Notes under the pieces: model-generated
Databases searched by the model: none
What the model saw: only the letters and a program-made list of their open reading frames with translations
Told to the model about the DNA's origin: nothing
Origin: a virus
Taxonomy: Duplodnaviria > Heunggongvirae > Uroviricota > Caudoviricetes
IMG/VR virus record: IMGVR_UViG_3300031857_016701
Span: 1 to 64,000 of that record
Length of the DNA: 64,000 bases
Reading direction: 5' to 3' (one strand)
Program-made: the position numbers and the translations under genes
Shown here: positions 5,763 through 62,295 of the stretch, in pieces
Position numbering within the stretch: position 1 is the stretch's first letter
Layout of the letters: the number at the start of each line of letters is the position of its first letter

Positions 5763-6046
5763 TTATGAAAAAGAAACAAACTCCAGTGTGTCAGAAAGTG
5801 GAACTAGACAATTGTTTTAGTTGCAAAGTTGTTGCGGGTAAAATACACAAGAAAAAGTGTGACATTGAAAGATGTAGTGAATGTGGTGGACAAAAGTTAA
5901 GTTGTGAATGTGAAGGACATGATAAACAATTTAGCAGATGGACAGGATTCTGGCCTGGAGAGTTAGAATGTAAGTCATTGAATATGGATTTGAATACCTT
6001 TTATATGACTGGTATGCATAAGATATTCTTTGTTAAACCTTCCTAA
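5753..6046 (+). CDS. hypothetical Cys-rich (zinc-finger-like) protein (97 aa)
   Basis: Multiple CxxC pairs (CFSC, CSEC, CEC). Confidence 0.3.
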   Translation: MLLIMKKKQTPVCQKVELDNCFSCKVVAGKIHKKKCDIERCSECGGQKLSCECEGHDKQFSRWTGFWPGELECKSLNMDLNTFYMTGMHKIFFVKPS

Positions 6047-10063: not shown

Positions 10064-11020
10064 ATGAAAGAAAAAGTTACAAAGGCTACTGATGTAGCTG
10101 TAATCGTTGGTCGTTTCCAGGTTAATGAACTCCATGAAGCTCATATTGACCTAATCACTTCAGTTCTGAATAAACATGACCGTGTGCTTTTGTTCTTGGG
10201 AAATAGCACTATCCGTAATACACTCAACAATCCTCTTGATTATCGTGCAAGACGTACAATGATTGCTGATAAGTTCCCCACAGTAGAGATTCATTATATC
10301 AATGATAATCCTTCTGATACTGCATGGACCAAGAATCTTGATAAGTTGATTGGTGAACAGTTGTTGCCAATGCAGACTGTTACACTATATGGTTCCCGTG
10401 ATAGTTTCTTGAAGTGTTATACTGGTAAGTACACTACTTGTGAGCTAGAAGCAACCACTTTTATTAGTGGTACAGAAGTTCGTCGTCGTGTATGTAACAA
10501 TTATCCTCCCACTGCAGATTATAGGGCTGGTATGATTGCTGCTACTGCATATCGTTTTCCTACAGCATTTCAGACTGTTGATATTGCTGTTGTAAATGAT
10601 AAGGGTGAACTGCTTTTGGCTCGTAAACCAGAAGAAAAGAAGTGGCGGTTTATTGGTGGATTTAGTGATCCTGCTTCTGTTTCTCTTGAAGAAGATGCTA
10701 AACGGGAAGTACAGGAAGAAGCTGGTGTAGAAGTTGGTAATATCACTTATCTTGGTTCTACACTTATCAATGACTGGCGTTACCGTGGAGAAATTGATAA
10801 GATTAAGACTGCATTGTTTGTTGCCAAGTATGTATTTGGCAAACCGGAGGGTGCAGATGATGTTGCAGAAGTGAAGTGGGTATCTATTAACAATTTGACT
10901 AAAAATGATATTGTTGAAACCCACCATGTTCTGATTGATATGTTCAATGAAAAGTTTGGAGCCAACCGGGAACTTCAGGAAAAGTTCTTCAAGCCAAATT
11001 TTGATGGAAAAATGCCTTGA
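10064..11020 (+). CDS. natV: bifunctional NMN adenylyltransferase / Nudix ADP-ribose pyrophosphatase (NatV/NadM-Nudix type)
   Basis: N-terminal nucleotidyltransferase with a GRFQ...H...H (HxGH-type) motif. C-terminal Nudix box (GGFSDPASVSLEEDAKREVQEEAGV). Confidence 0.75.
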   Translation: MKEKVTKATDVAVIVGRFQVNELHEAHIDLITSVLNKHDRVLLFLGNSTIRNTLNNPLDYRARRTMIADKFPTVEIHYINDNPSDTAWTKNLDKLIGEQLLPMQTVTLYGSRDSFLKCYTGKYTTCELEATTFISGTEVRRRVCNNYPPTADYRAGMIAATAYRFPTAFQTVDIAVVNDKGELLLARKPEEKKWRFIGGFSDPASVSLEEDAKREVQEEAGVEVGNITYLGSTLINDWRYRGEIDKIKTALFVAKYVFGKPEGADDVAEVKWVSINNLTKNDIVETHHVLIDMFNEKFGANRELQEKFFKPNFDGKMP

Positions 11021-11097
11021 CTTCGGGTGGAGTCTAGGGTAAAGTATTAAAAGTAAAGATTAAGGTACAGATAAAAATCATTACAGAAAGAAAAATT

Positions 11098-12495
11098 ATG
11101 AATAAAAACATTTGTTTGACTACGGATTCTTATAAGTTGAATCATTGGAATCAATATCCCAAGGGCACAGAAAAGGTTTATAGTTACTTTGAATGCCGTA
11201 AGGGATCTAAGTTTGCTGAAACTCCTTTCTTTGGACTTCAGTATATTATTAAGAACCACCTTGAAGGTGTTGTTGTGACCCGTCAGAAGATTGAGAATGC
11301 TGCTAAGGTGTGTAAGGCACATTTTGGTGATGAAAAGTATTTCAACCGTGAAGGTTGGGAATATGTTCTTAACAATTATGAAGGCAAGTTGCCTGTTGTT
11401 ATCAAGGCAGTTGAAGAAGGAACTGTTGTTCCTATCAACAATGTGCTTATGACTATTGAAAATACTGGCGGTGAAAAGACTGCTTGGTTGACCAATTTCC
11501 TTGAAACTATTTTGTCACAGGTTTGGTATCCTATTACAGTTGCTGCTTTGTCCCGTGAAGTGAAGGTTAATATCAAGGAATATCTTGATTTGACCAGTGA
11601 TGGTGGATTGCTTAACTTTGGTCTTCATGACTTTGGTTTCCGTGGAGCTAGCTCTTGGGAATCTGCTGGTATCGGGGGGGCTGCCCACTTGATTAACTTC
11701 TTGGGAACTGATACTGTTGTTGCTATGGAAGTGGCAATGAATTACTATAACGCTAATCTTGACGGTTTGGCATATAGTGTTGCTGCTACTGAACACTCTG
11801 TTATGACCGCACTTGGTAAGAATGGTGAAGAACAGGTTGTTGAGAATCTGTTGAATGAGTATCCTACTGGTATTCTGTCTGTTGTATCTGACAGCTATGA
11901 TATCTACAACTTTGTTGACAATATTGTTGGAAACAAGTTTAAGGTCCGTATTCTTGCCCGTGATGGTGTATTTGTAGTTCGTCCGGATTCTATTACTCCT
12001 ACTCACCCAACTCCTGAAGCAGAAATGGTTTGGATTATGCATAGTCTTTGGGATAACTTTGGTGGCACTATTAACAGCAAGGGTTATTGTGTTATCAATC
12101 CAAAGGTTCGTGTTCTTTGGGGTGACGGAATTGATATTGAAGGAATCAAGAAGATTCTGTATGCTGTTACCAAGGCTGGATTTGCAACTGAGAACATTGC
12201 TTGTTTTGGTATGGGTGGTGGATTGTTGCAGAAGGTTAACCGTGATACTCAGCGTTGTGCTTTTAAGTGTAGTGCTCAGTATCGTGATGGTCAGTGGTAT
12301 GACATTCAGAAGAATCCCAAGGATGTTTCCAAGGTTTCTAAGAAGGGTATTCTCAAGTTGATTAAGGTTGATGGTGAATTTGTTACTGTCAATGAAAATG
12401 AACCGGGAGAAGATTATTTGAAGGTTGTTTTTGAGAATGGTGTACTTGTCAAGGAAATTGATTTTGATACCGTTCGTAAAAATGCCGCTTTGTAA
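11098..12495 (+). CDS. nadV: nicotinamide phosphoribosyltransferase (NAMPT/NadV family; may act as a Namat-type enzyme)
   Basis: 465 aa with strong NAMPT-family similarity throughout (GLHDFGFRG, GTDT). Adjacent to the NMNAT gene. Confidence 0.8.
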   Translation: MNKNICLTTDSYKLNHWNQYPKGTEKVYSYFECRKGSKFAETPFFGLQYIIKNHLEGVVVTRQKIENAAKVCKAHFGDEKYFNREGWEYVLNNYEGKLPVVIKAVEEGTVVPINNVLMTIENTGGEKTAWLTNFLETILSQVWYPITVAALSREVKVNIKEYLDLTSDGGLLNFGLHDFGFRGASSWESAGIGGAAHLINFLGTDTVVAMEVAMNYYNANLDGLAYSVAATEHSVMTALGKNGEEQVVENLLNEYPTGILSVVSDSYDIYNFVDNIVGNKFKVRILARDGVFVVRPDSITPTHPTPEAEMVWIMHSLWDNFGGTINSKGYCVINPKVRVLWGDGIDIEGIKKILYAVTKAGFATENIACFGMGGGLLQKVNRDTQRCAFKCSAQYRDGQWYDIQKNPKDVSKVSKKGILKLIKVDGEFVTVNENEPGEDYLKVVFENGVLVKEIDFDTVRKNAAL

Positions 12496-12542
12496 TTGAC
12501 AACAAAAAGGTTTACGGTTATCCTTTAAAACCGTTTTTATTT

Positions 12543-12998
12543 ATGATTACAAATATTGATATAAACATTTTTGATTGTGACGCACACGGTATTATTCATC
12601 AAGCCAATTGTCAAAATACCATGCAAAGTGGTATTGCCAGACAAATTAGGGACAAGTATCCGGAGGCATATGAAGCAGATTGTAAAACAGTTGCGGGTGA
12701 TATTAAAAAACTGGGTACATTCAGTTGGGTAAAGACACATGATGATAAGTATATCTACAATTGTTATAGCCAATTTAGGTATGGAAAAGAACAACGTCAT
12801 ACAAATTATGAAGCAATTTATACTGGGTTGTCATCCATTAAAGACCACGCAAGCAGTATTGAGTTGACTTCTTTAAGTTTGCCATATAATATGGGATGCG
12901 CATTGGGTGGAGGGTCTTGGAATATTGTCAGAGCTATAATTCAAGATGTTTTTTATGATTCTGATATCAACCTTTTCATCTGCAAATATAACCCCTAA
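12543..12998 (+). CDS. macro-domain protein (ADP-ribose binding/processing)
   Basis: Macro signatures IIHQANCQNTMQSGIARQI and PYNMGCALGGGSWNIV (Gly-rich ADPR loop). Size 151 aa. Confidence 0.65.
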   Translation: MITNIDINIFDCDAHGIIHQANCQNTMQSGIARQIRDKYPEAYEADCKTVAGDIKKLGTFSWVKTHDDKYIYNCYSQFRYGKEQRHTNYEAIYTGLSSIKDHASSIELTSLSLPYNMGCALGGGSWNIVRAIIQDVFYDSDINLFICKYNP

Positions 12999-13001
12999 TT
13001 T

Positions 13002-13964
13002 ATGAAGACTATCAAGTTATTTTCAGGAACCAGTAATCTACCATTGGCACAGAAGATTTCACAAAATCTGAATGAACCTCTTGGTAAGATTTATCACCAC
13101 AAGTTTCCAAGTGGTGAAACCTATTGTCAATTCAAGGAAAATATCCGTGGCAGTGATGTATTTTTGATTCAAGGTATTACCAATCCAGCAAATGAAAACT
13201 TGATGGAATTGCTTGTAATGTCAGATGCTGCTAGACGGGCTAGTGCAGAACGTATTACTGCGGTAATTCCTTATTTTGGTTATGCTCGTCAAGACCGTAA
13301 GGATAAGAGCCGTGTTCCTATTACTGCTCGTCTTGTAATGGATTTGATTGCTACTGCTGGTATTGATAGGGTGGTGACTATGGATTTGCATAGTCCACAA
13401 GTGGGTGGATTTACTAATCTGCCATTTGATCATCTTACATTTGAACCAGTATTGAGTGAATATTTTAGGACCAAGTATCATTCATTAGATTTTAGGGATA
13501 ATGTTGTATTGATGGCACCGGATGTTGGTGCGGTTAAACGAGTGGAAAAGTATGCGGACTTGTTAAAGTGTGATTTTGGTTTTATCAGTAAGAAGCGTGT
13601 AAGTGATACCAAGGTAGAACTACAAAATGTTGTGGGCAATGTAAAAGATAAACATGTAGTTATTGTTGATGACCTCACTGAAAGTCTGGGAACAATGGTT
13701 CAAGCAGCAAAAGAATGTAAGAAACAAGGTGCTGTCAAAGTAACTTGTTCAGTAACTCATGGTTGTTTGACGGAGACAGGTATTCATAGATTGGCAGAGT
13801 CTATCAATGTAATTGATGAATTTATTCATAGTAATACAACAAATACATGGGGTAGTATTGGATTTAAGCCATCTAATGTTACTGAATTGGATGTAAGCAA
13901 CTTATTTGCTAAGGCTATTCGTAGTATCAACAAGAATGAAAGTGTAAGTGAATTATTCGTATGA
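13002..13964 (+). CDS. prs: ribose-phosphate pyrophosphokinase (Prs) homologue. The ribose-5-P loop is diverged, so it may be an ADP-ribose pyrophosphokinase (Adps-like).
   Basis: Near full-length colinearity with Prs (NLMELLVMSDAARRASAERITAVIPYFGYARQDRK, DLHSPQVGGF). The canonical DDxIDTGGT loop reads DDLTESLGT. Confidence 0.75.
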   Translation: MKTIKLFSGTSNLPLAQKISQNLNEPLGKIYHHKFPSGETYCQFKENIRGSDVFLIQGITNPANENLMELLVMSDAARRASAERITAVIPYFGYARQDRKDKSRVPITARLVMDLIATAGIDRVVTMDLHSPQVGGFTNLPFDHLTFEPVLSEYFRTKYHSLDFRDNVVLMAPDVGAVKRVEKYADLLKCDFGFISKKRVSDTKVELQNVVGNVKDKHVVIVDDLTESLGTMVQAAKECKKQGAVKVTCSVTHGCLTETGIHRLAESINVIDEFIHSNTTNTWGSIGFKPSNVTELDVSNLFAKAIRSINKNESVSELFV

Positions 13965-15269: not shown

Positions 15270-15519
15270 TAAGAATCATTGTTGTTATATAGTTATTTGT
15301 GGGGACAACACCCTCTATTGTGGTTATAGTAATGATGTTGAAAAACGAATTAGTAACCATAATAGGGGGTGTGGTGCTAAATATACTAAGACACGATTAC
15401 CAGTTAGATTAGTATATACAGAATGTTTTGATAGTAAGAGTGAAGCAATGAAGAGAGAGTATCAAATCAAACAATTGACCCGTCAACAAAAGTTAAAACT
15501 AATAAGTGAAAAACAATAA
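15202..15519 (+). CDS. small GIY-YIG nuclease (UPF0213/YhbQ-like). True start uncertain; a GTG at 15262 would remove the overlap.
   Basis: CYIVICGDNTLYCGYSNDVEKRISNHN is a GIY-YIG core, with a downstream conserved E (KSEAMKRE). Confidence 0.5.
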   Translation: MLQMVILDWALILLQQNLIFVVDKNHCCYIVICGDNTLYCGYSNDVEKRISNHNRGCGAKYTKTRLPVRLVYTECFDSKSEAMKREYQIKQLTRQQKLKLISEKQ

Positions 15520-16006
15520 AGCATTTACATTAATAGAATTGGTATTAGCCATAACCATATTGCTTGGTATTATTGGTGCAATTGTTATTAACTATGATAG
15601 TTTGGTGGGCAATACCAGATATTTTGAAGCTAGAGAAAACTTAAAGACACTATTGATTAATCTCAAACATCAATCAGCATTTCAACAAAAGGAATTTGAA
15701 CTTACATTTGATGAAAATTATAATATGTACAGTACATTTGACGATTTCTATTTATTGGATGCTGTCACAAATGACTTGAAGATACTTGAATCAAGTTCTA
15801 CCAAAATTGTGTTTTTTCTTGACGGAAGCGTACAAGAGAGTTATATTGTTACTAGCAACTTGGAGGGAACCATCACCAACAAATTTATTATTAATGTTAT
15901 TGGTGGGGTAAATTACGAGGGTACAACAAATATTGTTTTAGAAAAAAATGAATCTAATTTACAAACAGACCAACAACCAGAAGTTCCACGTATTGACTCC
16001 GAATAA
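15506..16006 (+). CDS. type IV pilin / pseudopilin-like protein with a class III (prepilin) signal
   Basis: N-terminus MKNNKA-FTLIELVLAITILLGIIGAIV: a basic leader, Phe+1, Glu+5, then a hydrophobic helix. Size 166 aa. Confidence 0.6.
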   Translation: MKNNKAFTLIELVLAITILLGIIGAIVINYDSLVGNTRYFEARENLKTLLINLKHQSAFQQKEFELTFDENYNMYSTFDDFYLLDAVTNDLKILESSSTKIVFFLDGSVQESYIVTSNLEGTITNKFIINVIGGVNYEGTTNIVLEKNESNLQTDQQPEVPRIDSE

Positions 16007-16028: not shown

Positions 16029-16184
16029 ATGGATGTTGACGGTTATTTCTATTTTTGGCCAAGTAACGATGGTTGCTGGCCGTCACATATAATGCGTTCT
16101 ATTGCTAACAAGTTGGATGATATCAACAAGCCTTGGAATGATGAAGTCACTGAATATTTCGATAAAGAAAAGATTATACTATGA
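16029..16184 (+). CDS. hypothetical small protein (start trimmed to MDVDGYF)
   Basis: ORF. The track version starts at 15948 and overlaps the pilin-like gene. Confidence 0.25.
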   Translation: MDVDGYFYFWPSNDGCWPSHIMRSIANKLDDINKPWNDEVTEYFDKEKIIL

Positions 16185-16672
16185 AAGCGATTATTGCGAT
16201 GGCAGAAAATAGGGTTATAGGCAAGAATGGTGGATTGCCATGGCCAAGTATCAAGGAGGATTTTAAGCACTTTAAAGAATTTACAATGGGTAATACACTT
16301 ATTGTGGGTAAAAATACATTTGATACATTACCACTTCTAAAAAATAGAGAATGTCTTGTACTAGTCAAAGAAGACAAAATAATGGCAGCGAATCCAAATC
16401 AATATCTAGTAAACAATAATTCTATGACGGGTAAACTGATTACGATGACAGATATTGAATCTTATAGTCAATTTAGAAAAGACTATTTGATTGTTGCTGG
16501 TGGTGCTAAAACTTATATTAATTTGTTACCATACATTACAGAGTTTTATGTTACGCATGTAAATGGTAAATATGATGGTGATACATTTATGCCACCATTT
16601 GAAGATTTGTTTACACATAAAGAAGTTGTAAAAGAATTTGACCTACACAAAGTTATAATGTATACTAAATGA
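16181..16672 (+). CDS. folA: dihydrofolate reductase
   Basis: MKAIIAMAENRVIGKNGGLPW N-terminal DHFR signature. Size 163 aa. Immediately upstream of thymidylate synthase. Confidence 0.8.
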   Translation: MKAIIAMAENRVIGKNGGLPWPSIKEDFKHFKEFTMGNTLIVGKNTFDTLPLLKNRECLVLVKEDKIMAANPNQYLVNNNSMTGKLITMTDIESYSQFRKDYLIVAGGAKTYINLLPYITEFYVTHVNGKYDGDTFMPPFEDLFTHKEVVKEFDLHKVIMYTK

Positions 16673-16673
16673 T

Positions 16674-17816
16674 ATGAATAGTTACGAAGAACAATATATC
16701 AATCTACTTTCAGAAATCTACAACGGGGGCACTTATTCCAAAAATAGAACCGGAATAAACACTCGTAAAATTTGGGGGGCTCAAATTCATGTAGATTTAT
16801 TGCATGAAGGATTTCCTCTACTTACCACAAAGAAAATGCACTGGAAGAGTGTAGTGCATGAACTATTGTGGATGATTAAAGGAGATACTAACATTCAGTA
16901 TCTTCTAAAGAATGGTGTTACATTCTGGACAGAATGGCCCTATCAAAAGTATCTTAACCATTGCAAAACACTCACTGAACCCGATTATGATGTTCATATC
17001 GAGGATCTTGAAAAAAATTGTGTGCGTGAAATGACACAAAAAGAATTTGAACAAGAAATCATCAATAACGATGAATTTGCCAAAAAGTGGGGTAGCATTG
17101 GACAATATGGTTATGGTGGAATGTGGAGAAACTTTCCACATCGTATTAACCCAATTGGTCAAAATAATGGTGATCACATGATCGTCAAAGGGTGGTCTGT
17201 TGAAACCGTGGATCAACTTAAAAATGCAATTAATGAACTAAACACTAATCCAGATAGTCGCCGGATTATCATCACTGCATGGCATCCGTATCATAGTAAT
17301 AACCGAGAAGATGCTCTATTGCCAGCCTGTCACAATTATATTCAGTTTGGTACTGAAGAATTGACACTAGAAGAAAGATTTAATATTTTTTCAAATGGAT
17401 GGAATGTAGAAGAATCAAAAAATGAGTGGAATAAAAATGGATTTACAGATTATGATTCCCTTCTTACAGATCATTATATTCCAAAATATCGTTTGAATTG
17501 TTACTTTAATATGAGAAGTAATGATGTACCACTTGGTTTACCATACAACATCGCTTTTTATGCTCTATTTACTCACTTGATGGCTCATTGTTTAAATATG
17601 ATTCCAAGTCAATTAGTTTATAGTGGTGCTGATGTTCATATCTATGAAAACCAACAAGAAGGAATTGTAGAACAATTGACTAGAACTCCCGGTAAATTGC
17701 CTAAGTTAGTTCTTAAACCAGGATGTCCTACCAATTTGTTTGATATTAAGTTTGACCACATTGATATTGTGGACTATAATCCTCAATCACACATTAAAAT
17801 GCCTGTAGCAGTATGA
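16674..17816 (+). CDS. thyA: thymidylate synthase (ThyA family) carrying two large insertions (380 aa)
   Basis: RTGINTRKIWG...FPLLTTKK...HELLWMIKGDTN. Active-site LPACH Cys. RSNDVPLGLPYNIAFYAL, with Asn at the dUMP-specificity position. Confidence 0.7.
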   Translation: MNSYEEQYINLLSEIYNGGTYSKNRTGINTRKIWGAQIHVDLLHEGFPLLTTKKMHWKSVVHELLWMIKGDTNIQYLLKNGVTFWTEWPYQKYLNHCKTLTEPDYDVHIEDLEKNCVREMTQKEFEQEIINNDEFAKKWGSIGQYGYGGMWRNFPHRINPIGQNNGDHMIVKGWSVETVDQLKNAINELNTNPDSRRIIITAWHPYHSNNREDALLPACHNYIQFGTEELTLEERFNIFSNGWNVEESKNEWNKNGFTDYDSLLTDHYIPKYRLNCYFNMRSNDVPLGLPYNIAFYALFTHLMAHCLNMIPSQLVYSGADVHIYENQQEGIVEQLTRTPGKLPKLVLKPGCPTNLFDIKFDHIDIVDYNPQSHIKMPVAV

Positions 17817-17998: not shown

Positions 17999-18201
17999 AA
18001 ACAAATTACTACGTTATAATTTTAGATCAAAACAACAATCTATGTGTTGATTCATTAGGCGAATGTTTCAGTGAAGACGCTTCATTAACTGAAGCAAATA
18101 AGTATCGTAAGAAACATAAAGCAGATGTACTCTGGACTTGCACAGAAAGTGCATTAAAAACACTAAAAGAATCACTTAAAAAATATGATAACCAACTATA
18201 A
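17995..18201 (+). CDS. hypothetical protein (68 aa)
   Basis: ORF. Confidence 0.3.
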   Translation: MKTNYYVIILDQNNNLCVDSLGECFSEDASLTEANKYRKKHKADVLWTCTESALKTLKESLKKYDNQL

Positions 18202-18565
18202 TTTATTTCTCGATGACAACCGCATTCCAACGAATGTCACTTGGGTTAATATTCCAAAAGATCAACATTACTCTGTGGTAAGAAATTATCAAGAGTTTGT
18301 TGACTTGATTACACTTCGTGGACTTCCTAAGTTTGTAACTTATGACCATGATTTGTCAGACTGCCACTATGGTCATGGTTTGAATAACGATGATATTCCA
18401 TATGACAAGTATACAGAAAAGACTGGATATGATTGTGCTAAATGGCTTGTGGAATATTGTATGAATAAGGGTGTTAAACATCCACCATATATGGTACATT
18501 CTATGAATCCCGTGGGTAAACAAAATATTATTAGTTATGTGGAATCGTATAACAAATCTGTTTAA
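18185..18565 (+). CDS. hypothetical small Rossmann/receiver-like domain protein (126 aa)
   Basis: Conserved-looking FLDDNR ... YDHDLSD ... DCAKWLVE ... HSMNPVG pattern. Confidence 0.3.
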   Translation: MITNYNLFLDDNRIPTNVTWVNIPKDQHYSVVRNYQEFVDLITLRGLPKFVTYDHDLSDCHYGHGLNNDDIPYDKYTEKTGYDCAKWLVEYCMNKGVKHPPYMVHSMNPVGKQNIISYVESYNKSV

Positions 18566-23269: not shown

Positions 23270-23716
23270 CTAATCCAATTTATGAACAGTAGATTTATTT
23301 GACATATCTTTAATAGATACATAACCTTTTTTCTTTTTGTAATCTTCTAAAGCTGCACTTAAGGCTTCATGTGCGAGTACACTGCAATGAATTTTCACTG
23401 GAGGCAATCCACCTAAAGCATTTACGATATCATCATTGCTAAAACATCTTTCCAATTCATCAATTGATTTACCCTTGATTAGTTCAGTAGCCATAGATGA
23501 AGCAGCAATTGCACTACCACAACCAAAAGTCTTAAATCTAGCATCCATTACAGTTCCAGTAATATCATCAATTTTAAGACTAATTTTCATTATATCACCA
23601 CATGCTGCAGCACCAACTTCACCAACTGCATCTGCATCTTTTATATCACCCATATTACGTGGGTTCATAAAATGATCCATTACCGTTTTATTATATAGTG
23701 TATAAGATTCACTCAT
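23270..23716 (-). CDS. iscU: IscU/NifU-type Fe-S cluster assembly scaffold
   Basis: NPRNMG, GAAACGD, FKTFGCGSAIASS and HC motifs (three conserved Cys plus LPPVK). Confidence 0.8.
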   Translation of the reverse strand: MSESYTLYNKTVMDHFMNPRNMGDIKDADAVGEVGAAACGDIMKISLKIDDITGTVMDARFKTFGCGSAIAASSMATELIKGKSIDELERCFSNDDIVNALGGLPPVKIHCSVLAHEALSAALEDYKKKKGYVSIKDMSNKSTVHKLD

Positions 23717-24879
23717 AGTCCGATTTGTTTAAGATCGTTTTTGACCATTTTATCAACAAGTTGTTCAAATGAAGTTTCTGGTTTCCATCCCAGTTCTTTT
23801 CTAGCTTTGGTGCTATCACCTAGTAATAGGTCTACTTCAGCAGGTCTATAAAACTTAGGATTGATTTTAACCAAGACAGAAACTAATGGATCATATTTGA
23901 TAGCATCTTTTGTGGTAATACTAAACTCCATAGATTCAGCCTCTCCATGCCATCCACCATCAATATCAGCGGCTTTAAATGCATACCATACAAATTCCGC
24001 AATAGTATGTGTTTCATTACTGGAAAGTACATATTCTTCAATTTGCATGTTACTATCCATGTCAACTCTACATTTTTCTTGATTCATCATCAACCAAATG
24101 CCTTTGACAAAATCTTCAGCATCACTCCAATCTCTTCTAGCTTTTACATTTCCCAATTCAATTGGTTGAAATGATTTACCTTCAAGTATAGCTTTTTTGA
24201 TTCTAGCTACCCCTTTTGTAATTTTACGAGTAACAAATTCTTCTCCTCTTCTAGTGCCTTCGTGATTAAATAACAATCCTTGAATTGCATATAAATGATA
24301 CGATTCTCTATATACTTTTACCAATTGTCTAGCTGCAGATTTACTTGCTCCATATGGACTACGAGGTCTTGCAGGATGATTTTCATCTTGTGGTGTATAA
24401 ACAACATTGCCATATTCTTCACTACTACCTGCGTTATAAAATCTACATGATGGTTTGTGTTGACGAATTGCTTCAAGAATATGAATTACTCCAGTTGTAT
24501 TACATTCCCATGTTTGTGATGGAAAATCCCAACTACTACCAACGAATGTTTGAGCTGCCAAATTAATAAAATAATCTGGTTTCAATGATTCTACGATCTT
24601 ACTAATACTATGCGCATCACTTAAATCAAAATTTACCAAATGAAATCTTGGATTATTTTCTAAATGTCCAATGTTTTCATGATTTTTAATGCTTAATCGT
24701 CTGGCACCACCAAAAATTAAATAATCAGTAGTTTTAAGAAGAAAATCAACCATATGACTTCCATCTTGTCCAGTTACACCAGTAACAAATACAACTTTAT
24801 TATTACCGATTATATTTTTTGCATCATTGATATTCAATATTTCCATAGTAACCTCTTCATTTTTTGTAGTAAAAACCAT
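23713..24879 (-). CDS. gmd: GDP-mannose 4,6-dehydratase
   Basis: VTGVTGQDGSHMVDFLL Rossmann motif. YGASKSAAR (YxxxK). About 388 aa, colinear with Gmd. Confidence 0.8.
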   Translation of the reverse strand: MVFTTKNEEVTMEILNINDAKNIIGNNKVVFVTGVTGQDGSHMVDFLLKTTDYLIFGGARRLSIKNHENIGHLENNPRFHLVNFDLSDAHSISKIVESLKPDYFINLAAQTFVGSSWDFPSQTWECNTTGVIHILEAIRQHKPSCRFYNAGSSEEYGNVVYTPQDENHPARPRSPYGASKSAARQLVKVYRESYHLYAIQGLLFNHEGTRRGEEFVTRKITKGVARIKKAILEGKSFQPIELGNVKARRDWSDAEDFVKGIWLMMNQEKCRVDMDSNMQIEEYVLSSNETHTIAEFVWYAFKAADIDGGWHGEAESMEFSITTKDAIKYDPLVSVLVKINPKFYRPAEVDLLLGDSTKARKELGWKPETSFEQLVDKMVKNDLKQIGL

Positions 24880-24905: not shown

Positions 24906-25304
24906 ATGTATATATATGAATATATGGTTACAAAAGAAATTATATTGGATATATTAAATGATAAAGACAATTTTGTCAATATAGTAAAAGAATTTCCTGG
25001 TTTATATTCATCGTGTGTAACTATAAAACAAAATGTATCCAAAGAAAATGTTGATATAGCTATGAATAAAATACTGGCTTTTATAGATAAAAATGAAAAG
25101 TTCAAGAACTTAATTCAAAGTTTAATACCAAAAATAAAAGAAAAAGAAACCGAAAAGAATAGTGTATCAGGTCTTGTTCTTGAAATAGATAAAAACGATG
25201 AAAGTTATTCTAAACTAATAGAAAAATCCAAGAAAGAAAAATGGAATTACAAAGGACTTACTATTGTTGATGGATATGATAAATTGAAAGTATATTTTTA
25301 TTAA
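24906..25304 (+). CDS. hypothetical protein (132 aa)
   Basis: ORF. Confidence 0.3.
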   Translation: MYIYEYMVTKEIILDILNDKDNFVNIVKEFPGLYSSCVTIKQNVSKENVDIAMNKILAFIDKNEKFKNLIQSLIPKIKEKETEKNSVSGLVLEIDKNDESYSKLIEKSKKEKWNYKGLTIVDGYDKLKVYFY

Positions 25305-25816
25305 AATTCGTCTTCGTCTCCGTAATCTTCGTCTTCTTCATCGTCAAAATCATCAAAGTCTTCTTCTTCATCATGCATATAATTTGGATTATGTTTTTGA
25401 TGAAAGTTCTTAAAATCTGCATCAGACAATCCCAATGAGTTAATCATTGAAATAAGAATAAAACACATTTGTTCTTTTGGTGCCTTTTTATCCAATATTT
25501 TTTTGGATAATAAATTTGAAAGAATCATCAATGAAATTACCTTTTTATCGTCTTTCATGAAACTATTATCCATGAATTTTTCTTTCACTATTTCTGTCTT
25601 TGACATTATTAAACCAGGAACATCAGTCAACTTCATAGAATCCATCGTATTTCTTTTGATTTCTTCTTCTAATAATTGATTCCGTGTTTTCTTGTCACCA
25701 CCCAATTTATTGATTTCATCACTAATCGTTTTAATACTTTCACGATTTAACTTTTTAGCTATACTAAAAGATATTAATACACCGTGTTGAGCAATTAAAT
25801 GATTAAATGTTTTCAT
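25301..25816 (-). CDS. hypothetical protein with a strongly acidic C-terminal tail
   Basis: C-terminus DEEEDFDDFDDEEDEDYGDEDEF. Confidence 0.4.
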   Translation of the reverse strand: MKTFNHLIAQHGVLISFSIAKKLNRESIKTISDEINKLGGDKKTRNQLLEEEIKRNTMDSMKLTDVPGLIMSKTEIVKEKFMDNSFMKDDKKVISLMILSNLLSKKILDKKAPKEQMCFILISMINSLGLSDADFKNFHQKHNPNYMHDEEEDFDDFDDEEDEDYGDEDEF

Positions 25817-36356: not shown

Positions 36357-37238
36357 TTAAATTATATATTTTATTGTATTTAACAATTTTCGTTTATTTT
36401 TCTCATTTACTTCCAAAAAATGATGTCTGATATTATCACAATTGTTTTTTTGAAATTCAAATAGATATTCTTTATTATTCAATGTATCTTCAAATTTTGA
36501 TTTATCTACAAAATAACCTTTTCTAAGTTTATATAGTGGATTTGATAAATATTCATAATTTATTACAGATGTATAAATTGATTTAATTGGAATAAATTTA
36601 ACCAAATTAGGATCTAAATATTCTTTAAATACAGGTATTTCACTGCAAATTACTAATTTACCACAACTCATTGCTTCCCATAAATAATGTCCCCATGCTT
36701 CATATAAGCTACAACATATATGAATGTTATGGTTATTAAGTTCATATACTAATTCATTTTCATTTAAATATTTATGATTAGCATCAAGAATATTAATTTT
36801 TTCTTTATAATTCCGAATCAATTCATGATTTTTTTGTATAGACTTTCCTTTTAAGAATAATATTTCTTTATTATTTTTTGTAAAAAAATATCTATCTAGA
36901 CTAAAAAATCCAGTAATAATTATATTTTTATGATATTGATCTAATATTGATTTGGCATATTTAGATTTAACAAATATATAATCAAAATTATGTAGATAAA
37001 TCAATTCATCATTAGACAACCACTCTTCATTTGGAATTAAAATATTAATTTTATTATCATTCATATATGTTTCATATATGTTTTGTATAAAAATTCCAAT
37101 ATCACTTTTTCTATTTATGATTTCTTTTGAAATATCGTATATAACCACATCAAATTCTTTTAAAACTTGAGTTAATAAAATTATGTCATTTTTTAAACCG
37201 ACTCCATTGTTCCAATAATATATGTTGACTTTAATCAT
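36357..37238 (-). CDS. GT4-like glycosyltransferase
   Basis: YEAWGHYLWEAMSCGKLVI (E-x7-E GT4 C-domain motif). Confidence 0.5.
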   Translation of the reverse strand: MIKVNIYYWNNGVGLKNDIILLTQVLKEFDVVIYDISKEIINRKSDIGIFIQNIYETYMNDNKINILIPNEEWLSNDELIYLHNFDYIFVKSKYAKSILDQYHKNIIITGFFSLDRYFFTKNNKEILFLKGKSIQKNHELIRNYKEKINILDANHKYLNENELVYELNNHNIHICCSLYEAWGHYLWEAMSCGKLVICSEIPVFKEYLDPNLVKFIPIKSIYTSVINYEYLSNPLYKLRKGYFVDKSKFEDTLNNKEYLFEFQKNNCDNIRHHFLEVNEKNKRKLLNTIKYII

Positions 37239-37278
37239 GATGTTTTACAATTTAAATTAAATAAAATTAAGATATTGT

Positions 37279-37947
37279 TTATACCGAATTGTATAAAAAT
37301 TTCATACATTCTTCATTTGTAACATAATGAAAAGAATATAAATTACTTATATCATTTGTATTATTTAATTTTGAATAGTCTCTACAACAGTTATCTTTGT
37401 TTATTAATTTAATGTTATTATTTCTAAAATTAATTCCAATACTTACATCAGTATATCCGAATTTAAAATTTTTAAAATTAATTTGTTTTATAATTTTACT
37501 ACTTATAAAAAATCCCGTCCCGCCGGCTATATAAGAAAAGTCTGAAGGTATATCTTTATGTTTAAATATTGGATTATCTGTGTTATTATTTTTATTTAAA
37601 ATATAACCGTAAACATTATCTTCATTAAAATTTTTAATCATTGTAAATACAAGTTTGTAATTTACAAAAGTATCATCATCAACAAAATACATCCATTTAT
37701 ATAAATCTAAAATATATTCGTTATTCTTTTTTATATTTATTAACGAATTTAAAATATTAATACCTTTTTCTTCATTACTACTATAACTATCATCGTCAGA
37801 TACTTTTATAATATTGTTATCTACATCATAATGATCTGAATAATACAAATGATCCATATGTTTTGCCCATGTATTTTTAACCGAAAGTATTCTTTCTTGA
37901 TTTTTATGGGTAGTTGATATTAGAACAAATAACATATTATCATACAT
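37279..37947 (-). CDS. Fringe-like / GT31-type glycosyltransferase
   Basis: WMYFVDDDTFV DxD motif in a Fringe-like context. Confidence 0.45.
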   Translation of the reverse strand: MYDNMLFVLISTTHKNQERILSVKNTWAKHMDHLYYSDHYDVDNNIIKVSDDDSYSSNEEKGINILNSLINIKKNNEYILDLYKWMYFVDDDTFVNYKLVFTMIKNFNEDNVYGYILNKNNNTDNPIFKHKDIPSDFSYIAGGTGFFISSKIIKQINFKNFKFGYTDVSIGINFRNNNIKLINKDNCCRDYSKLNNTNDISNLYSFHYVTNEECMKFLYNSV

Positions 37948-37976
37948 ATATATAAATTAATTATATTATTTTTTAT

Positions 37977-38678
37977 ATGAAATATTTTATTAATTATGCT
38001 GATAAGTTTTATTTTAAAAGTCAACTATTATCATTAAATTGTGCTAAAGACTTCGGATTCAAATGTCAATCATATTCAAAAAATGATATCGATAATGATT
38101 TTATTGAAAAAAATAAAATTATTATAGATTGTACGAGAGGGGCGGGATATTGGTTATGGAAACCATATTTAATTCTTAAAAAATTAAATGAAATAGACTA
38201 TGGTGAATATCTTGTCTATATGGATTCGGGTGCCAATTTTATTAAACCAGTAGATGATTTATTAGAAAGTATCGATGATAAGGGTATATTGGCGTTTCAA
38301 CTTAAAAATAATAAAAATAATAAATGGATAAAAGGAGATTGTTTTTTTGCAATAAATTCTATTAATGATGTATACAAATTTAAAGATGATGAACAAATAT
38401 TAGCATCATTTATTTTTTTCAGAAAAACCGATTTCTGTATAAATTTTGTTAAAAAGTGGTTATATTATGCAGAACAAAAAAACGTAATTATGGATTTACC
38501 AAATGTATTTTTTCCAAATTGTAATGGATTTATTGATCATAGACACGATCAAGCTATATTTTCATTATTGTGTTATAATTATAATATAACATGTATACCA
38601 GATATATCACAACACGGATTAATATATGATAATATAACAACGGATAGTGTTAGAATAAATCATCATAGGAATTCTTAA
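37977..38678 (+). CDS. hypothetical protein, possible GT-A-like transferase (233 aa)
   Basis: ORF on the opposite strand within the glycan locus. Confidence 0.3.
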   Translation: MKYFINYADKFYFKSQLLSLNCAKDFGFKCQSYSKNDIDNDFIEKNKIIIDCTRGAGYWLWKPYLILKKLNEIDYGEYLVYMDSGANFIKPVDDLLESIDDKGILAFQLKNNKNNKWIKGDCFFAINSINDVYKFKDDEQILASFIFFRKTDFCINFVKKWLYYAEQKNVIMDLPNVFFPNCNGFIDHRHDQAIFSLLCYNYNITCIPDISQHGLIYDNITTDSVRINHHRNS

Positions 38679-38690
38679 ATAGTTTATTTA

Positions 38691-39725
38691 CTAATTATTT
38701 AATATTTCTTCGGTTATATGCTCTAAATTTTTAGTAATTTTAAATTGAGGATAATCATTTTTTAATTTTGTTAAATCGCTATAATAACAAATATGATCTC
38801 CTTTTCTATTTTCATCTACATATTCGTAATTAAATTTTTTTCTGCCTATATGTTCCAACATTGATATACATTCTATGATTGAACATGAATTGGATTTACT
38901 TCCGCCAATATTATAAACAGCAGCAATTTGTGGATTGTTAATAAACAATTGCATGAAATTAACAACATCAAATGAATGTATATTATCACGTACTTGTTTT
39001 CCTTTATAACCATATATTTTGTATAAGGTATCGGATTTATAACATTTAACCAGATAATTTAAAAATCCGTGTAATTCTACACCACTATGATTTCTCCCAG
39101 TAAGACACCCACCACGTAAACAAACAGTTGGAATTTTAAAATATCTACCATATTCTTGCACTAAAATATCAGCTGCAACTTTTGATGCACCAAATAATGA
39201 ATGTGTTGAATGATCTATCGATAACATTTCAGAAATGCCATTATTAAAGTTATCATCGTCATAGTCATATCTAGTGTTCAATTCTTTCAATTTAATTTCA
39301 TTTGGTTTGTCACCATATACTTTATTAGTTGACATGTGAATAAACACGCAATCTTTATTAGTTTGTCTAGTTGATTCCAATAAATGTAACGTTCCATTAG
39401 CATTTGTTTCAAAATCATCAAATGGTATAGATGATGATTTATCATGACTTGGTTGTGCGGCAGTATGAATAACTACATCAAATTTAATGGTTTTAAAAAG
39501 GTTATTGACTTCTTGTTTATTACGTATATCAATAAAATAATTTCTAAAATTAGAATGTGTATTTATTAGAACATTAAGTCTATTTAAAGTGCTTCCTTTT
39601 TCACCGAAAAATATTTGACGTTGATTATTTTCGATACCATAAATTTTATGTCCTTGTGTTGCAAAATAACTAACTGCTTCTGATCCAATCAATCCTCCTG
39701 CGCCTGTTATTAACATTGTCTTCAT
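38691..39725 (-). CDS. NAD-dependent sugar epimerase/dehydratase (extended SDR). The catalytic Tyr of YxxxK is replaced by Phe.
   Basis: ITGAGGLIGS Rossmann motif. HTAAQPSHD. The motif reads LFGASKVAAD instead of YxxSK. Confidence 0.6.
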   Translation of the reverse strand: MKTMLITGAGGLIGSEAVSYFATQGHKIYGIENNQRQIFFGEKGSTLNRLNVLINTHSNFRNYFIDIRNKQEVNNLFKTIKFDVVIHTAAQPSHDKSSSIPFDDFETNANGTLHLLESTRQTNKDCVFIHMSTNKVYGDKPNEIKLKELNTRYDYDDDNFNNGISEMLSIDHSTHSLFGASKVAADILVQEYGRYFKIPTVCLRGGCLTGRNHSGVELHGFLNYLVKCYKSDTLYKIYGYKGKQVRDNIHSFDVVNFMQLFINNPQIAAVYNIGGSKSNSCSIIECISMLEHIGRKKFNYEYVDENRKGDHICYYSDLTKLKNDYPQFKITKNLEHITEEILNN

Positions 39726-40348
39726 TAAAAATTATTAATATAAATATCATCACATCCTAAAGAGATAACTTTTCTAAAGTTGTTTGATGATAACAATTCA
39801 TAGACATCATTGCTTTGATAGTTATTTTCTACAGATATAGATTTAATTTTAATGTTTTTAAAATCAATTGTTTTTAAAATGCAATATTCAGCTCCTTCAA
39901 CATCTAAACTTAGATAATCAATTTTATTACATTGATATTTTTTTATTATGTCTTGAAAAGTAATTGTTTGGACTTCTATAATTTCTACAGATTTACCATG
40001 TATAAGTAATTCATTAAAAATTCTACTTAAATGTTCGGGTTTTTGTTCACATAATAGTCCGCTTAATCCTTTTATGTATCCATCGCATGATAAAAATTTA
40101 AATATGCCTGATTCTTTATATATTGCTACATTTTCCACAGGAGATTTTCTTTTATTTTTTAAATTTTCTAATTCTTGTTTTCTTGGTTCAATTAATATTC
40201 CATTCCATCCCAAATCTTCAAAGAAAAAAGTGTTATTTTGATATTCGTGTTCAGACGCCCCAATATCTATAAAAAATCCATCTGTTACGTTTTTAAAAAA
40301 ATTTTCATATAAAAATTGATCTTGTTTATATTGACTTTTATATTTCAT
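39725..40348 (-). CDS. FkbM-family methyltransferase
   Basis: GFFIDIGASEHEYQNN FkbM signature. Confidence 0.5.
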   Translation of the reverse strand: MKYKSQYKQDQFLYENFFKNVTDGFFIDIGASEHEYQNNTFFFEDLGWNGILIEPRKQELENLKNKRKSPVENVAIYKESGIFKFLSCDGYIKGLSGLLCEQKPEHLSRIFNELLIHGKSVEIIEVQTITFQDIIKKYQCNKIDYLSLDVEGAEYCILKTIDFKNIKIKSISVENNYQSNDVYELLSSNNFRKVISLGCDDIYINNF

Positions 40349-41168
40349 TTAAATAATTTTCTTTTATGTATTTCCACGGATACAAAAATGGTTCTGCTTT
40401 AATAAAATTTTCTTTTATTACTTCAATTCTATCGTTATAATAATTAACATCTGTATAAGATAAAATATCAATTAATTCTTCTGGTTCTGTAAATAAAATT
40501 ATTCCATCTTTATTAAAATAATTAATAATCTCGGGATCTCCTTTGTAAATTGGTATAGTTCCTGTTCTAAAACAATCTAATATTTTTTCTGTAAAATATC
40601 CTTTTACAAAACAATTTTCTACTGCAATAGAATATCTGTAATCCTTATGCCATTTAAGTTTTTGTTCAACAGGATCTCCATATTTATAACCATCTAACAA
40701 TTTTTTTGTCAATTCAAAACACTTATGCCTAAAATGATGTCCGTCAGTCCATAGTTTAGATGAACAAACTATACTTGAATTTTTATTTTTTTCATATATT
40801 TTTTGTTCATTCAAAGGAATAAAATAAGAACCCCAAGGATACCAAAATCCATTTTGTATAGAATTACAAAAATCTCTATTATGTGAAAAAACTTTTTTAA
40901 ATTTAGTATTTTCTTTTATGGCTAGTTGATATATGTGCGGATGAATTACTTCTGGTTCCGTAATCCATAAGTAAATATTTTTTGATTTAAGTTGATTTAG
41001 ATAATTTAAAGCAGCTTTATCAGTAATGACAATATTTTCACTATTATTTAGTTCTTGTATTTCAAATGTGTGTTTAAAACAATAATTTAAATCTAACAAC
41101 TCCGCTTCTTTTTGAAAATTAACCGGATTTAAATTTGCTTCAAAATCAAAAAATAATATTTCTTTCAT
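40338..41168 (-). CDS. GT10 alpha-1,3-fucosyltransferase-like glycosyltransferase
   Basis: YRYSIAVENCFVKGYFTEKILD matches the GT10 FucT motif (YxFxLxFENSxxxxYxTEK). Confidence 0.5.
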   Translation of the reverse strand: MKEILFFDFEANLNPVNFQKEAELLDLNYCFKHTFEIQELNNSENIVITDKAALNYLNQLKSKNIYLWITEPEVIHPHIYQLAIKENTKFKKVFSHNRDFCNSIQNGFWYPWGSYFIPLNEQKIYEKNKNSSIVCSSKLWTDGHHFRHKCFELTKKLLDGYKYGDPVEQKLKWHKDYRYSIAVENCFVKGYFTEKILDCFRTGTIPIYKGDPEIINYFNKDGIILFTEPEELIDILSYTDVNYYNDRIEVIKENFIKAEPFLYPWKYIKENYLNEI

Positions 41169-41198
41169 TTTATAAAATATCTACAATATTAAACTCAT

Positions 41199-44654: not shown

Positions 44655-44698
44655 GTTTTTTGTCTTTTAATGATAAACAAAATATTTTTGGTACCATA

Positions 44699-56722: not shown

Positions 56723-56729
56723 TAAAGTT

Positions 56730-58393: not shown

Positions 58394-58397
58394 ATTT

Positions 58398-60379: not shown

Positions 60380-60425
60380 TATTTTTATGTAATGTATTTA
60401 AAAAAATACAAATATCAAATATAAT

Positions 60426-62294: not shown

Positions 62295-62295
62295 A

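Follow-up and report, generated by a model that had tools for sequence, protein, structure and literature searches.

The stretch of DNA analyzed here (the window; 64,000 nt, positions 1 to 64,000 of the IMG/VR virus record IMGVR_UViG_3300031857_016701, Caudoviricetes) encodes a GDP-mannose 4,6-dehydratase (GMD), a GT10 fucosyltransferase-like glycosyltransferase (GT), and, cut off by the window end, a DegT-family enzyme with His in place of the Lys that binds pyridoxal 5'-phosphate (PLP). The question raised by this locus is whether the three genes serve a single GDP-fucose/colitose pathway, as the first-pass annotation had proposed. We found that they probably belong to at least two independent nucleotide-sugar branches and not to one GDP-colitose pathway, together with a large glycan island, and that the branch containing the DegT gene would lead to a branched dideoxyhexose. 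The single pathway was abandoned because the DegT enzyme was E1-type by homology, lay 39 kb from GMD, and belonged to a separate module. The three genes are as follows.

23713-24879, minus strand: GMD, 388 aa, divergent (Pfam, NCBIfam, and PDB matches)
40338-41168, minus strand: GT10-like (alpha-1,3-fucosyltransferase-like) glycosyltransferase, 276 aa, short form (Pfam, profile, and fold)
63352-64000, plus strand: E1/RfbH-type 3-dehydrase, N-terminal 216 aa of 436 (Pfam DegT, RfbH, and E1 matches)

DegT-family gene at the end of the window

The 216-aa fragment, which ends in ...SCSFYPAHHMTM, matched Pfam DegT with 150 bits. At the position of the PLP-binding Lys, it reads SFYPAHHMTM, compared with FYPAHHITM in E1; the first His aligns with His220 of E1, the position at which the H220K mutant structure 3bb8 shows Lys. 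The truncated gene with His for Lys was thus real. Because this His is common to E1 and ColD, the residue cannot discriminate between them, and of the proposal that it marks a ColD/E1-type 3-dehydratase, the His-type enzyme stood, while the ColD option was lost to the scores, the N-terminal extension, and the cysteines. The fragment scored 173.6 bits against E1, aligned from residue 4, and 128.9 bits against ColD, aligned from residue 31; the early N-terminal start, which had been taken to favor ColD and E1 jointly, is specific to E1. Against the NCBI RfbH model, the fragment scored 232.7 bits over model positions 11-227.

The full-length gene (L003:6803-8113) was recovered by way of the GT61 protein encoded upstream, which led to metagenomic contigs that match the window with 100% identity for 7.3-7.5 kb and run past its end. 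Followed beyond the window, a check that the first-pass annotation had suggested, the gene encodes 436 aa (437 in E1 and 390 in ColD) and keeps its His, with no canonical Lys. The protein passed the RfbH equivalog NF011936 (472.2 bits against a cutoff of 423, model positions 11-437 of 440). It aligned end to end with E1 (345.8 bits, 42% identity), compared with 197.1 bits and 33% identity for ColD. Its EDCC and GCYC...SC motifs keep the equivalents of E1 Cys192/193, 251, 253, and 261, of which C193, C251, C253, and C261 are presumably the unusual [2Fe-2S] ligands, with a spacing of X12 instead of the X7 of E1. These cysteines and the N-terminal extension are absent from ColD and from the DegT protein of Synechococcus phage S-CAM7. 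As E1 is favored by the model and score preference, by the extension, and by the Fe-S cysteines alike, the phage enzyme is assigned by homology as an E1/RfbH-type NDP-4-keto-6-deoxyhexose (NDP, nucleoside diphosphate) 3-dehydrase dependent on pyridoxamine 5'-phosphate (PMP) and [2Fe-2S], and not as ColD.

The immediate neighbors of the E1-like gene are the GT61 gene, a 305-aa open reading frame (ORF), and an RmlB-like gene. Full-length homologues (39-43% identical) were found in at least eight phage records among the matches listed, including the Synechococcus phages S-H68, S-B05, S-B43, RN05-S, and RB11-B and one 642-kb phage; the S-H68 gene is annotated as CDP-4-dehydro-6-deoxy-D-glucose 3-dehydratase.

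Gene module downstream of the E1-like gene

On the identical contigs, the E1-like gene is followed by the 305-aa ORF, a 321-aa RmlB-like short-chain dehydrogenase/reductase (SDR), a DJ-1/PfpI protein, a cupin of 225 aa, a small protein (129 aa) carrying the HAD-type motif DxDGV, a thiamine diphosphate (ThDP) enzyme of 576 aa, and an overlapping 277-aa SDR. The RmlB-like SDR carries the motifs STDEVYG and YSATK, and it scored 294 bits against the NCBIfam dTDP-glucose 4,6-dehydratase model versus 66 bits against the CDP type. Further downstream are an acetyltransferase, methyltransferases (one with the sugar C-methyltransferase-type domain Methyltransf_14), a GT2, and RmlA. With 388 bits against an equivalog cutoff of 361, this RmlA is classed as genuine by its sequence. 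The 288-aa SDR beside RmlA was closest to plant NRS/ER and to the UDP-L-rhamnose synthase 7jid, which we take to be the mimivirus enzyme, and is assigned by these matches as an NRS/ER-type 3,5-epimerase/4-reductase. On two contigs, RmlA and this SDR are separate genes of 280 and 288 aa, and on the window-identical contig they are called as a single 522-aa fusion (L009:17377-18945 compared with L008:17341-19046); the two may truly be fused there, or the call may stem from a frameshift or from the assembly.

The order of E1, RmlB-like SDR, DJ-1, cupin, approximately 128-aa protein, ThDP enzyme, and SDR was kept in relatives (ThDP enzymes 74-79% identical; contigs of 166 and 176 kb), and the GTs flanking this conserved module differed between relatives. 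Together with the upstream GT block, the module had the same order on L003-L005 (100% identical) and on L001, L002, and L006 (96.7-99.99%).

In the PDB, the ThDP enzyme matched JanthE (8rph) with 385.6 bits, 5ahk, which we take to be the YerE of P. protegens, with 243 bits, and true AHAS enzymes with at most 223 bits, and it fell below all NCBIfam ALS equivalog cutoffs (e.g., 366 against 538). By these matches, it is assigned to the sugar-branching YerE class. JanthE is a characterized YerE-like enzyme (PMC12188165). YerE joins a C2 unit from pyruvate to CDP-4-keto-3,6-dideoxyglucose, the E1/E3 product, yielding yersiniose, and ErwE catalyzes the analogous step to erwiniose (PMC9306805, PMC12247030, PMC4753412). 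Their clusters combine deoxy-keto-sugar genes with a ThDP enzyme and an oxidoreductase (PMC9306805).

The bacterial context was compared for 80 bacterial or archaeal loci encoding relatives of the phage ThDP enzyme (39-52% identical), 67 of which were longer than 12 kb. An E1-like protein (38-47% identical to the phage E1) was encoded within 10 kb of the ThDP gene in 40 of these 67 loci. A homologue of the 277-aa SDR was present in 20 of the 80, and the closest loci shared the trio of DJ-1, cupin, and ThDP enzyme. All four bacterial loci that were sampled for partners had genuine RfbF and RfbG, and in the one locus that was profiled (L146), the E1-like gene passed the RfbH model with 718 bits. 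The closest cellular ThDP relatives (L096-L102 and L112; 46-52% identical) came from Nitrospinaceae, Scalindua, Phycisphaerae, and a Pacearchaeota metagenome-assembled genome; they share a (DJ-1)-cupin-ThDP arrangement, mostly with no E1 within 10 kb, and this sub-group may branch a different keto sugar.

The phage record collection contained no true homologue of the ThDP enzyme, only ilvB-like matches at 28-30% identity. Literature searches for YerE-like enzymes or branched-chain sugars in connection with phages or giant viruses returned nothing relevant among the top-ranked papers, which is weak evidence of novelty. A YerE-like module in a phage appears to be undescribed so far.

GMD and the GT10-like glycosyltransferase

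The GMD called at 23.7 kb by the first-pass annotation was confirmed. Its product matched Pfam GDP_Man_Dehyd (PF16363) with 341.6 bits over profile positions 1-332 of 332, and its 11 best PDB matches were all GDP-mannose 4,6-dehydratases (234-254 bits), followed by RMD (139) and GDP-heptose dehydratase (110). In the alignment with 2z1m, GSSEEYG, SPYGASK, and FNHEGTRRGEEFVTRKIT match the residues of the catalytic Ser/Glu, YxxxK, and RR loop. The protein carries a 27-aa N-terminal extension and an internal insertion, and it scored 321.2 bits against the NCBIfam gmd equivalog (TIGR01472), below the cutoff of 415, and is therefore a divergent GMD. From its sequence, it is a genuine member of the GDP-mannose 4,6-dehydratase family with the corresponding predicted activity.

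The GT10-like gene at 40.3 kb was likewise upheld, and the profile search bore out its motif. The match to Pfam GT10 (PF00852) was marginal (25.2 bits against a cutoff of 23.9), and most of 370 homologues contained PF00852. The protein carries YSIAVENCFVKGYFTEKILDCF..TIPIY, matching the alpha-1,3-fucosyltransferase motif, and the GT10 motif FxLxFENSxxxxYxTEK occurs as YSIAVENCFVKGYFTEK, in which E184, N185, Y191, T193, E194, and K195 are invariant or nearly so in the family. In a 38-sequence alignment, the residues of ENxxxxYFTEK..D..P.Y.G were invariant or nearly so. When the 38-member profile was compared with the PDB, fucosyltransferases alone were significant, with E values from 4e-18 (H. 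pylori FucT) to 2e-9; the other matches were plant FucTA, human FUT9, and mango FucT13. An AlphaFold (AF2) model had a predicted local distance difference test score (pLDDT) of 94.9, and its top Foldseek matches were 2nzx, 8d0o, and 9s6a (H. pylori FucT, FUT9, and Arabidopsis FUT11). The GT10-like assignment holds by Pfam, motif, profile, and modeled fold.

Two genes on the same strand adjoin the GT10-like gene.

39725-40348, minus strand: FkbM-family methyltransferase (Pfam Methyltransf_21, 63.9 bits; NCBIfam fkbM_fam, 42.2)
38691-39725, minus strand: atypical extended SDR of 344 aa (SDR344), CDP-tyvelose-2-epimerase-like (PDB matches)

By their ORF coordinates, the FkbM gene overlaps SDR344 by 1 nt and the GT10-like gene by 11 nt, and from these overlaps the three genes would form an operon. 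The best PDB matches of SDR344 were the CDP-tyvelose 2-epimerases 1orr (126.9 bits) and 9rl0 (116.9), with a dTDP-glucose dehydratase next (68). Its own subfamily, within which it scored 210-410 bits, is distinct and large, with 563 cluster representatives at E <1e-30. The Ser/Thr-Tyr-Lys triad is incomplete in SDR344, which reads HSLFGASK with Phe at the position of Tyr164 of 1orr. This Phe (HSxFGxSK) was found in 36 of 45 aligned members, SDR344 included, and Ser132, Lys182, and the NAD-binding glycines were kept. The subfamily looks like an extended SDR family with non-canonical chemistry, as judged from these residues. By gene context in relatives, SDR344 is a candidate partner of GMD or nucleotide-sugar modifier, and we do not call it a reductase.

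Gene neighborhood of GMD in related phages

Relatives of the window GMD (63-94% identical) were present in at least 574 metagenomic stretches, and the context of 80 loci encoding such relatives was compared with a reference set. In its own clade (GMD at least 70% identical), the order SNF2, orf257, orf171, GMD, IscU was kept. The gene that follows GMD is given below.

23270-23716, minus strand: IscU/NifU-type Fe-S scaffold, 4-nt overlap with the GMD stop

This protein matched Pfam NifU_N with 161.8 bits and NCBIfam NifU_clost and IscU with 173.8 and 148.6 bits. IscU directly followed GMD in 38 of the 80 loci, and it is probably co-transcribed with GMD. An Fe-S scaffold and an E1-type enzyme predicted to need [2Fe-2S] occur in the same phage, and a functional link between them is conceivable.

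In five sister loci (L028, L038, L041, L043, and L046; L028:4476-5609), a 377-378-aa DegT gene divergently adjoins GMD, and the GMDs of these sister phages are 80-85% identical to that of the window. This DegT protein scored 163.8 bits against ColD, 78 against E1, and 65 against perosamine synthase; its His aligns with His188 of ColD, and it has neither the N-terminal extension nor the Cys motif. On these grounds, the sister-phage gene is assigned as ColD-type. It is absent from the window, where tblastn returned the E1 gene alone at 28% identity. The corresponding slot beside GMD is filled in the window by orf132 and orf171 (24906-25816) and looks like a gene-replacement hotspot.

These results bear on the alternative in which the His-type DegT enzyme acts like ColD on the GMD product, a reductase encoded elsewhere in the genome yields GDP-colitose or a different 3,6-dideoxyhexose, and transfer of the sugar falls to the GT10-like enzyme. 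We regard it as very improbable. The His at the Lys position, the presence of GMD and a GT10-like gene in one genome, the lack of RfbF and RfbG, and the E1-like genes a few kilobases from GMD in a distant clade are compatible with it, and the phage group does include ColD-type chemistry next to GMD, as S-CAM7 probably does. However, the window DegT was E1-type in every test (RfbH equivalog, 346 versus 197 bits, extension, and Fe-S cysteines), and its gene, 39 kb away from GMD, is part of a conserved module that encodes an RmlB-like dehydratase of its own and a YerE-like enzyme. Moreover, the sister phages use for this position a different 377-aa ColD-like gene, which the window lacks, and ColC or GMER was not found.

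In the distant clade, whose GMDs are 63-66% identical, GMD is embedded in sugar clusters that vary. In 4 of 28 loci, a GT10-like gene was no more than 5 kb away from GMD, and a 60%-identical homologue of SDR344 was beside or near GMD in 2 of the 28 (directly after it in L067 and near it in L083). The placement of GMD beside GT10-like, Fcl-like, SDR344-like, or ColD-like genes in relatives argues that the phage itself consumes the GMD product. It thereby speaks against GMD being a stand-alone auxiliary metabolic gene that boosts the first committed step of the host GDP-6-deoxyhexose pathway, untied to the GT10-like gene and the glycan island, as does the GT10-like enzyme encoded in the same genome, whose characterized relatives use a GDP-sugar donor. 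We consider such a stand-alone role quite unlikely, although it would suit the conserved core-like neighborhood of GMD (SNF2 and IscU) away from the GT islands, a GC content of 33% that fits the core genome and not the GT island (20-27%), the lack of a phage GMER or RMD, and the wide occurrence of GMD in cyanophages. The GC contents were 33% for GMD, 20-27% for the GT island, 31% for E1, and 29% for the YerE-like gene. GC content was rejected as proof of separate modules; it is suggestive for the GT island alone and does not decide.

GMD-like matches were found in 255 phage records, many of them cyanophages in which the gene is often annotated beside GDP-fucose synthetase. With full-length E1-like genes in at least eight records as well, the statement that such a system is rare for phages was too strong.

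Partner enzymes and the nucleotide carrier

Neither RfbF nor RfbG turned up in the window or the following 20 kb; RmlA and the RmlB-like gene are present instead. A Cys-rich 93-aa ORF at 5765-6046 had no Pfam match. The 277-aa SDR was tried as GMER and rejected, as its likeness to GDP-fucose synthase was weak and N-terminal (33-45 bits), and the 288-aa SDR was rejected as GMER, RMD, or ColC because it is of the NRS/ER type. In tblastn searches, the Fcl of S-CAM7 returned nothing in the window or in L009, and a clade-B Fcl-like protein returned weak partial SDR matches only.

The nucleotide carrier of the E1 branch is ambiguous, dTDP being favored by gene context and CDP by E1 homology. A classical CDP-3,6-dideoxyhexose pathway (ddh/asc-type) would take CDP-4-keto-6-deoxyglucose from the host or from a 622-aa fusion protein (described below) plus a dehydratase, and SDR344 would interconvert sugars of the CDP-paratose/CDP-tyvelose type. 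The passing of the RfbH equivalog by the full-length DegT protein agrees with this pathway, as do the CDP-tyvelose 2-epimerases as nearest solved relatives of SDR344, the bacterial ThDP relatives that sit with RfbF, RfbG, and RfbH, and the CDP-sugar used by the characterized YerE and ErwE (PMC9306805). It is nevertheless unlikely, since RfbF, RfbG, E3, and paratose synthase were undetected in the window and the next 20 kb, the dehydratase of the module is RmlB-like (294 versus 66 bits for the CDP type), and a genuine RmlA is in the island. Furthermore, SDR344 and most of its subfamily have Phe for the catalytic Tyr, and the dehydratase beside SDR344 in relatives is GMD and not an E1 gene.

Proposed nucleotide-sugar branches

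Two branches, at least, are proposed as the most probable reading of the locus. In the first, GMD would convert GDP-mannose of the host into GDP-4-keto-6-deoxymannose, from which a reductase/epimerase would complete a GDP-6-deoxyhexose, e.g., fucose or rhamnose. Candidates for this finishing step are a host enzyme, a second activity of GMD, or a phage SDR, including SDR344. The GT10-like enzyme would then transfer the GDP-derived sugar, possibly with methylation by the adjacent FkbM enzyme. GMD and the GT10-like enzyme as a GDP-6-deoxyhexose branch are plausible. In this respect, the idea that the phage makes or decorates a GDP-fucose/colitose-type glycan was retained for the GDP-6-deoxyhexose, and its link to colitose through the DegT gene was dropped.

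In the second branch, RmlA and the RmlB-like enzyme, encoded two genes downstream of E1, would supply NDP-4-keto-6-deoxy-D-glucose. The E1-like Fe-S enzyme would remove the 3-hydroxyl using PMP and [2Fe-2S], with electrons from a host ferredoxin or flavodoxin system, a source suggested because no E3-type reductase was found. The YerE-like ThDP enzyme would branch the NDP-3,6-dideoxy-4-keto-hexose at C4, and the adjacent SDR would reduce it. The expected product is a yersiniose- or erwiniose-type branched dideoxyhexose, as suggested by homology, conserved gene order, and bacterial co-occurrence. NDP-4-keto-6-deoxyglucose could also feed an L-rhamnose branch via the NRS/ER-like SDR. Approximately 15 GT-like genes would assemble the glycan on the virion or the host surface.

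Several points weigh against this reading. It takes its enzymes from family memberships, and its substrates, products, and glycan target from homology and gene context. The sequence covered is approximately 85 kb (the window and the downstream 20 kb) of a genome of approximately 170 kb. Within it, no E3-type reductase, ferredoxin, or FNR was found (Pfam on nearly all ORFs of at least 100 aa, and a Cys-motif scan), nor was a GMER, RMD, or ColC orthologue. For the window itself, the Pfam and NCBIfam scans agree with the first-pass annotation, which had found no GMER/ColC-type reductase there. SDR344 lacks the canonical catalytic Tyr, and its role is doubtful. The RmlB-like gene is under its equivalog cutoff (294 against 365). 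The E1 passes a CDP-trained model, and bacterial YerE-like clusters use RfbF/RfbG, while the phage has RmlA and the RmlB-like gene instead. Finally, E1-like genes lie a few kilobases from GMD in the distant clade (L073, L078, L084, L085, and L090), which leaves some room for a GDP-linked substrate of E1. In L073, a genuine RmlB also adjoins (417 bits against a cutoff of 365), so that the adjacency of E1 and GMD there is uninformative on the E1 substrate; the other four loci hold a similar, unprofiled SDR.

A more specific version of the second branch is possible but doubtful in our judgment. In this version, the T4-like clade, represented by hundreds of metagenomic contigs, would encode a dTDP-glucose-based pathway to a C4-branched 3,6-dideoxyhexose (RmlA, RmlB-like enzyme, an E1-like enzyme without E3, YerE-like enzyme, and SDR), in addition to rhamnose and GDP-6-deoxyhexose branches and approximately 15 GT-like genes. 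If true, no earlier branched-chain sugar pathway encoded by a virus would be known, and the pathway would be a dTDP variant of one known only with CDP. The virion or the infected cell would then be expected to carry a complex glycan specified by the phage.

Glycan islands and other sugar genes in the window

The GT-like genes of the window, approximately 15 in total and 11 above Pfam thresholds, are concentrated in two regions.

36357-49216, minus strand with one plus-strand ORF: low-GC glycan island, 20-27% (Pfam scans and per-gene GC)
46715-49216, minus strand: GT4+GH130-like fusion, 833 aa (GT4-type residues 206-340; C-terminal domain 569-832)
56192-63342, plus strand: second GT block, interrupted by dUTPase (GT4 halves, GT1-like, GT2, 622-aa fusion, and GT61), leading into the E1 module
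60426-62294, plus strand: 622-aa NTP-transferase/HAD-phosphatase fusion (Pfam/NCBIfam)

The first island contains eight GT-like genes above Pfam thresholds and two below, two FkbM methyltransferases, and the GT4+GH130-like fusion. Its GT families are GT1/4, Fringe-like, GT10, Anp1/GT2, DXD GT, GT25, and GT2. The GC content of core genes is 30-40% (34% for the family B DNA polymerase, PolB, and 40% for NAMPT) versus 20-27% in the island, which suggests that the island is hypervariable or acquired. Families best known from eukaryotes are represented by the Fringe-like, Anp1, and GT10 genes of the island and by GT61 at 62296-63342. The C-terminal GH130-like domain of the 833-aa protein resembles beta-mannoside phosphorylases with sub-cutoff scores (21 bits in Pfam and 30 in NCBIfam). 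In the 622-aa fusion, residues 1-234 correspond to a sugar-1-phosphate nucleotidylyltransferase and residues 243-348 to an HAD-IIIA/capsule-phosphatase-like domain, and approximately 270 aa are matchless; this protein may activate a further sugar. A 455-aa NTP-transferase/HAD protein lies inside the E1/YerE-like module of a relative (L014).

Source phage

The window derives from a distant uncultured T4-like phage lineage, and its label as phage is correct. Its GC content is 30%. PolB (51463-53997, minus strand) best matched Microcystis phage Mel-JY01 at 45% identity among 50,697 phage records, followed by T4-like cyanophages and one pelagiphage at approximately 30%. The T4-like gene set of the window further includes an RFC-like clamp-loader, a PD-(D/E)XK nuclease, dUTPase, ThyA, DHFR, RNA and DNA ligases, NAD-salvage genes, and GIY-YIG/HNH endonucleases. 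A near-identity search with 20 kb against the 50,697 phage records returned a single 50-bp dUTPase match and no nucleotide-level relative. A giant-virus origin, considered on account of the eukaryote-like GT families and PolB, was rejected because PolB matches T4-like phages (45% for Mel-JY01) and because the AAA+ clamp-loader-like gene beside PolB gives an order that looks T4-like.

10064-13964 and 16181-17816: NAD-salvage/nucleotide block (NUDIX, NAMPT, macro-domain protein, PRPP synthetase, DHFR, and ThyA)

The ThyA protein has 380 aa, of which residues 6-380 span the match to a 266-position profile, implying an insertion of approximately 110 aa. Two odd ORFs lie at 15506-16006 and 18185-18565; the first matched PF07963, a type IV pilin-like N-terminal methylation motif, with 24 bits, and the second matched the cREC_REC domain ("cyclic-phosphate processing receiver") with 68 bits. 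Such ORFs are unusual for a phage replication/metabolism region.

Implications

GMD and E1-like genes were already annotated in cyanophages, and the finding within the window is in this sense ordinary. The more interesting element would be the conserved E1/YerE-like module fed by RmlA/RmlB-type enzymes, which lies mostly outside the window. For annotation, a DegT enzyme with His for Lys cannot by itself assign a GDP pathway; the extension, the Fe-S cysteines, and the gene neighborhood separate E1-type from ColD-type enzymes, two types that public phage annotations blur, as exemplified by the S-CAM7 label discussed below. The clade spends tens of kilobases on several nucleotide-sugar branches, methyl- and acetyltransferases, and many GTs. 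Should the glycan be displayed on virions or alter the surface of the host, it would be relevant to phage-host recognition and superinfection exclusion. YerE-like enzymes are also of possible interest as biocatalysts for tertiary alcohols.

Comparison with known systems

The phage DegT protein resembles E1/AscC/RfbH (DdhC), the CDP-6-deoxy-L-threo-D-glycero-4-hexulose-3-dehydrase of Yersinia pseudotuberculosis (PDB 3BCX), in its length, extension, SFYPAHH His-His, and cysteines. It differs in having five extra residues after the CxC pair, ahead of the last Cys, and in not conserving Cys257. The phage gene has no nearby E3 (AscD) or RfbF/RfbG, and its neighbors are RmlB-like and RmlA. On the RfbH model, it scored 472 bits, whereas a bacterial RfbH from a YerE-like cluster reached 718. 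With ColD, the GDP-4-keto-6-deoxymannose 3-dehydratase of E. coli O55 (PDB 2GMS), it shares the DegT fold, the His for Lys, and membership in the 3-deoxygenating PMP enzymes; ColD needs no reductase. The identity to ColD is 33% (197 bits), and the extension and Fe-S cysteines occur in the phage protein but not in ColD.

In Synechococcus phage S-CAM7 (KU686213, L011, 164047-167901), GMD, a "GDP-L-fucose synthetase", a 377-aa DegT gene, and GT11 are contiguous. Both S-CAM7 and the window are T4-like with GMD (40% identical) and a His-type DegT protein. That of S-CAM7 carries His in place of the Lys and is devoid of both the E1 extension and the Fe-S cysteines, whereas that of the window is E1-type and encoded 39 kb from GMD, which is accompanied there by IscU alone. 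By its sequence, the S-CAM7 DegT protein looks ColD-like, and its cluster resembles a pathway of the GDP-colitose type; the record probably mislabels the protein as "CDP-4-keto-6-deoxy-D-glucose-3-dehydrase". The pairing of GMD with ColD would thus be realized by another gene in the sister phages, and S-CAM7 would be the same case in an isolate.

The GT10-like protein shares with Helicobacter pylori FucT (GT10; PDB 2NZW/2NZX), its best profile and fold match, the nucleotide-binding motif ENxxxxYxTEK(I/L)xD...TIPIY. It is shorter (276 aa), has 14-18% identity over the fold with a TM (template modeling) score of approximately 0.55, and is without the C-terminal heptad/membrane-anchor region. Virus-encoded nucleotide-sugar pathways with many GTs and a virus-specified glycan are known from the GMD/GMER of chlorovirus PBCV-1 and the clusters of Mimivirus. 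Those are eukaryotic viruses, whereas the window comes from a tailed T4-like phage in which GMER was not found.

The bacterial YerE, ErwE, and JanthE clusters are the closest counterpart of the second branch, as they also combine 3,6-dideoxy-4-keto sugar genes, a ThDP enzyme, and an oxidoreductase (PMC9306805). In bacteria, all four clusters that were sampled rely on RfbF/RfbG and thus on CDP-glucose, whereas the phage has RmlB-like and RmlA genes. The phage module, most of which lies outside the window, adds conserved DJ-1/PfpI, cupin, and small HAD-like genes.

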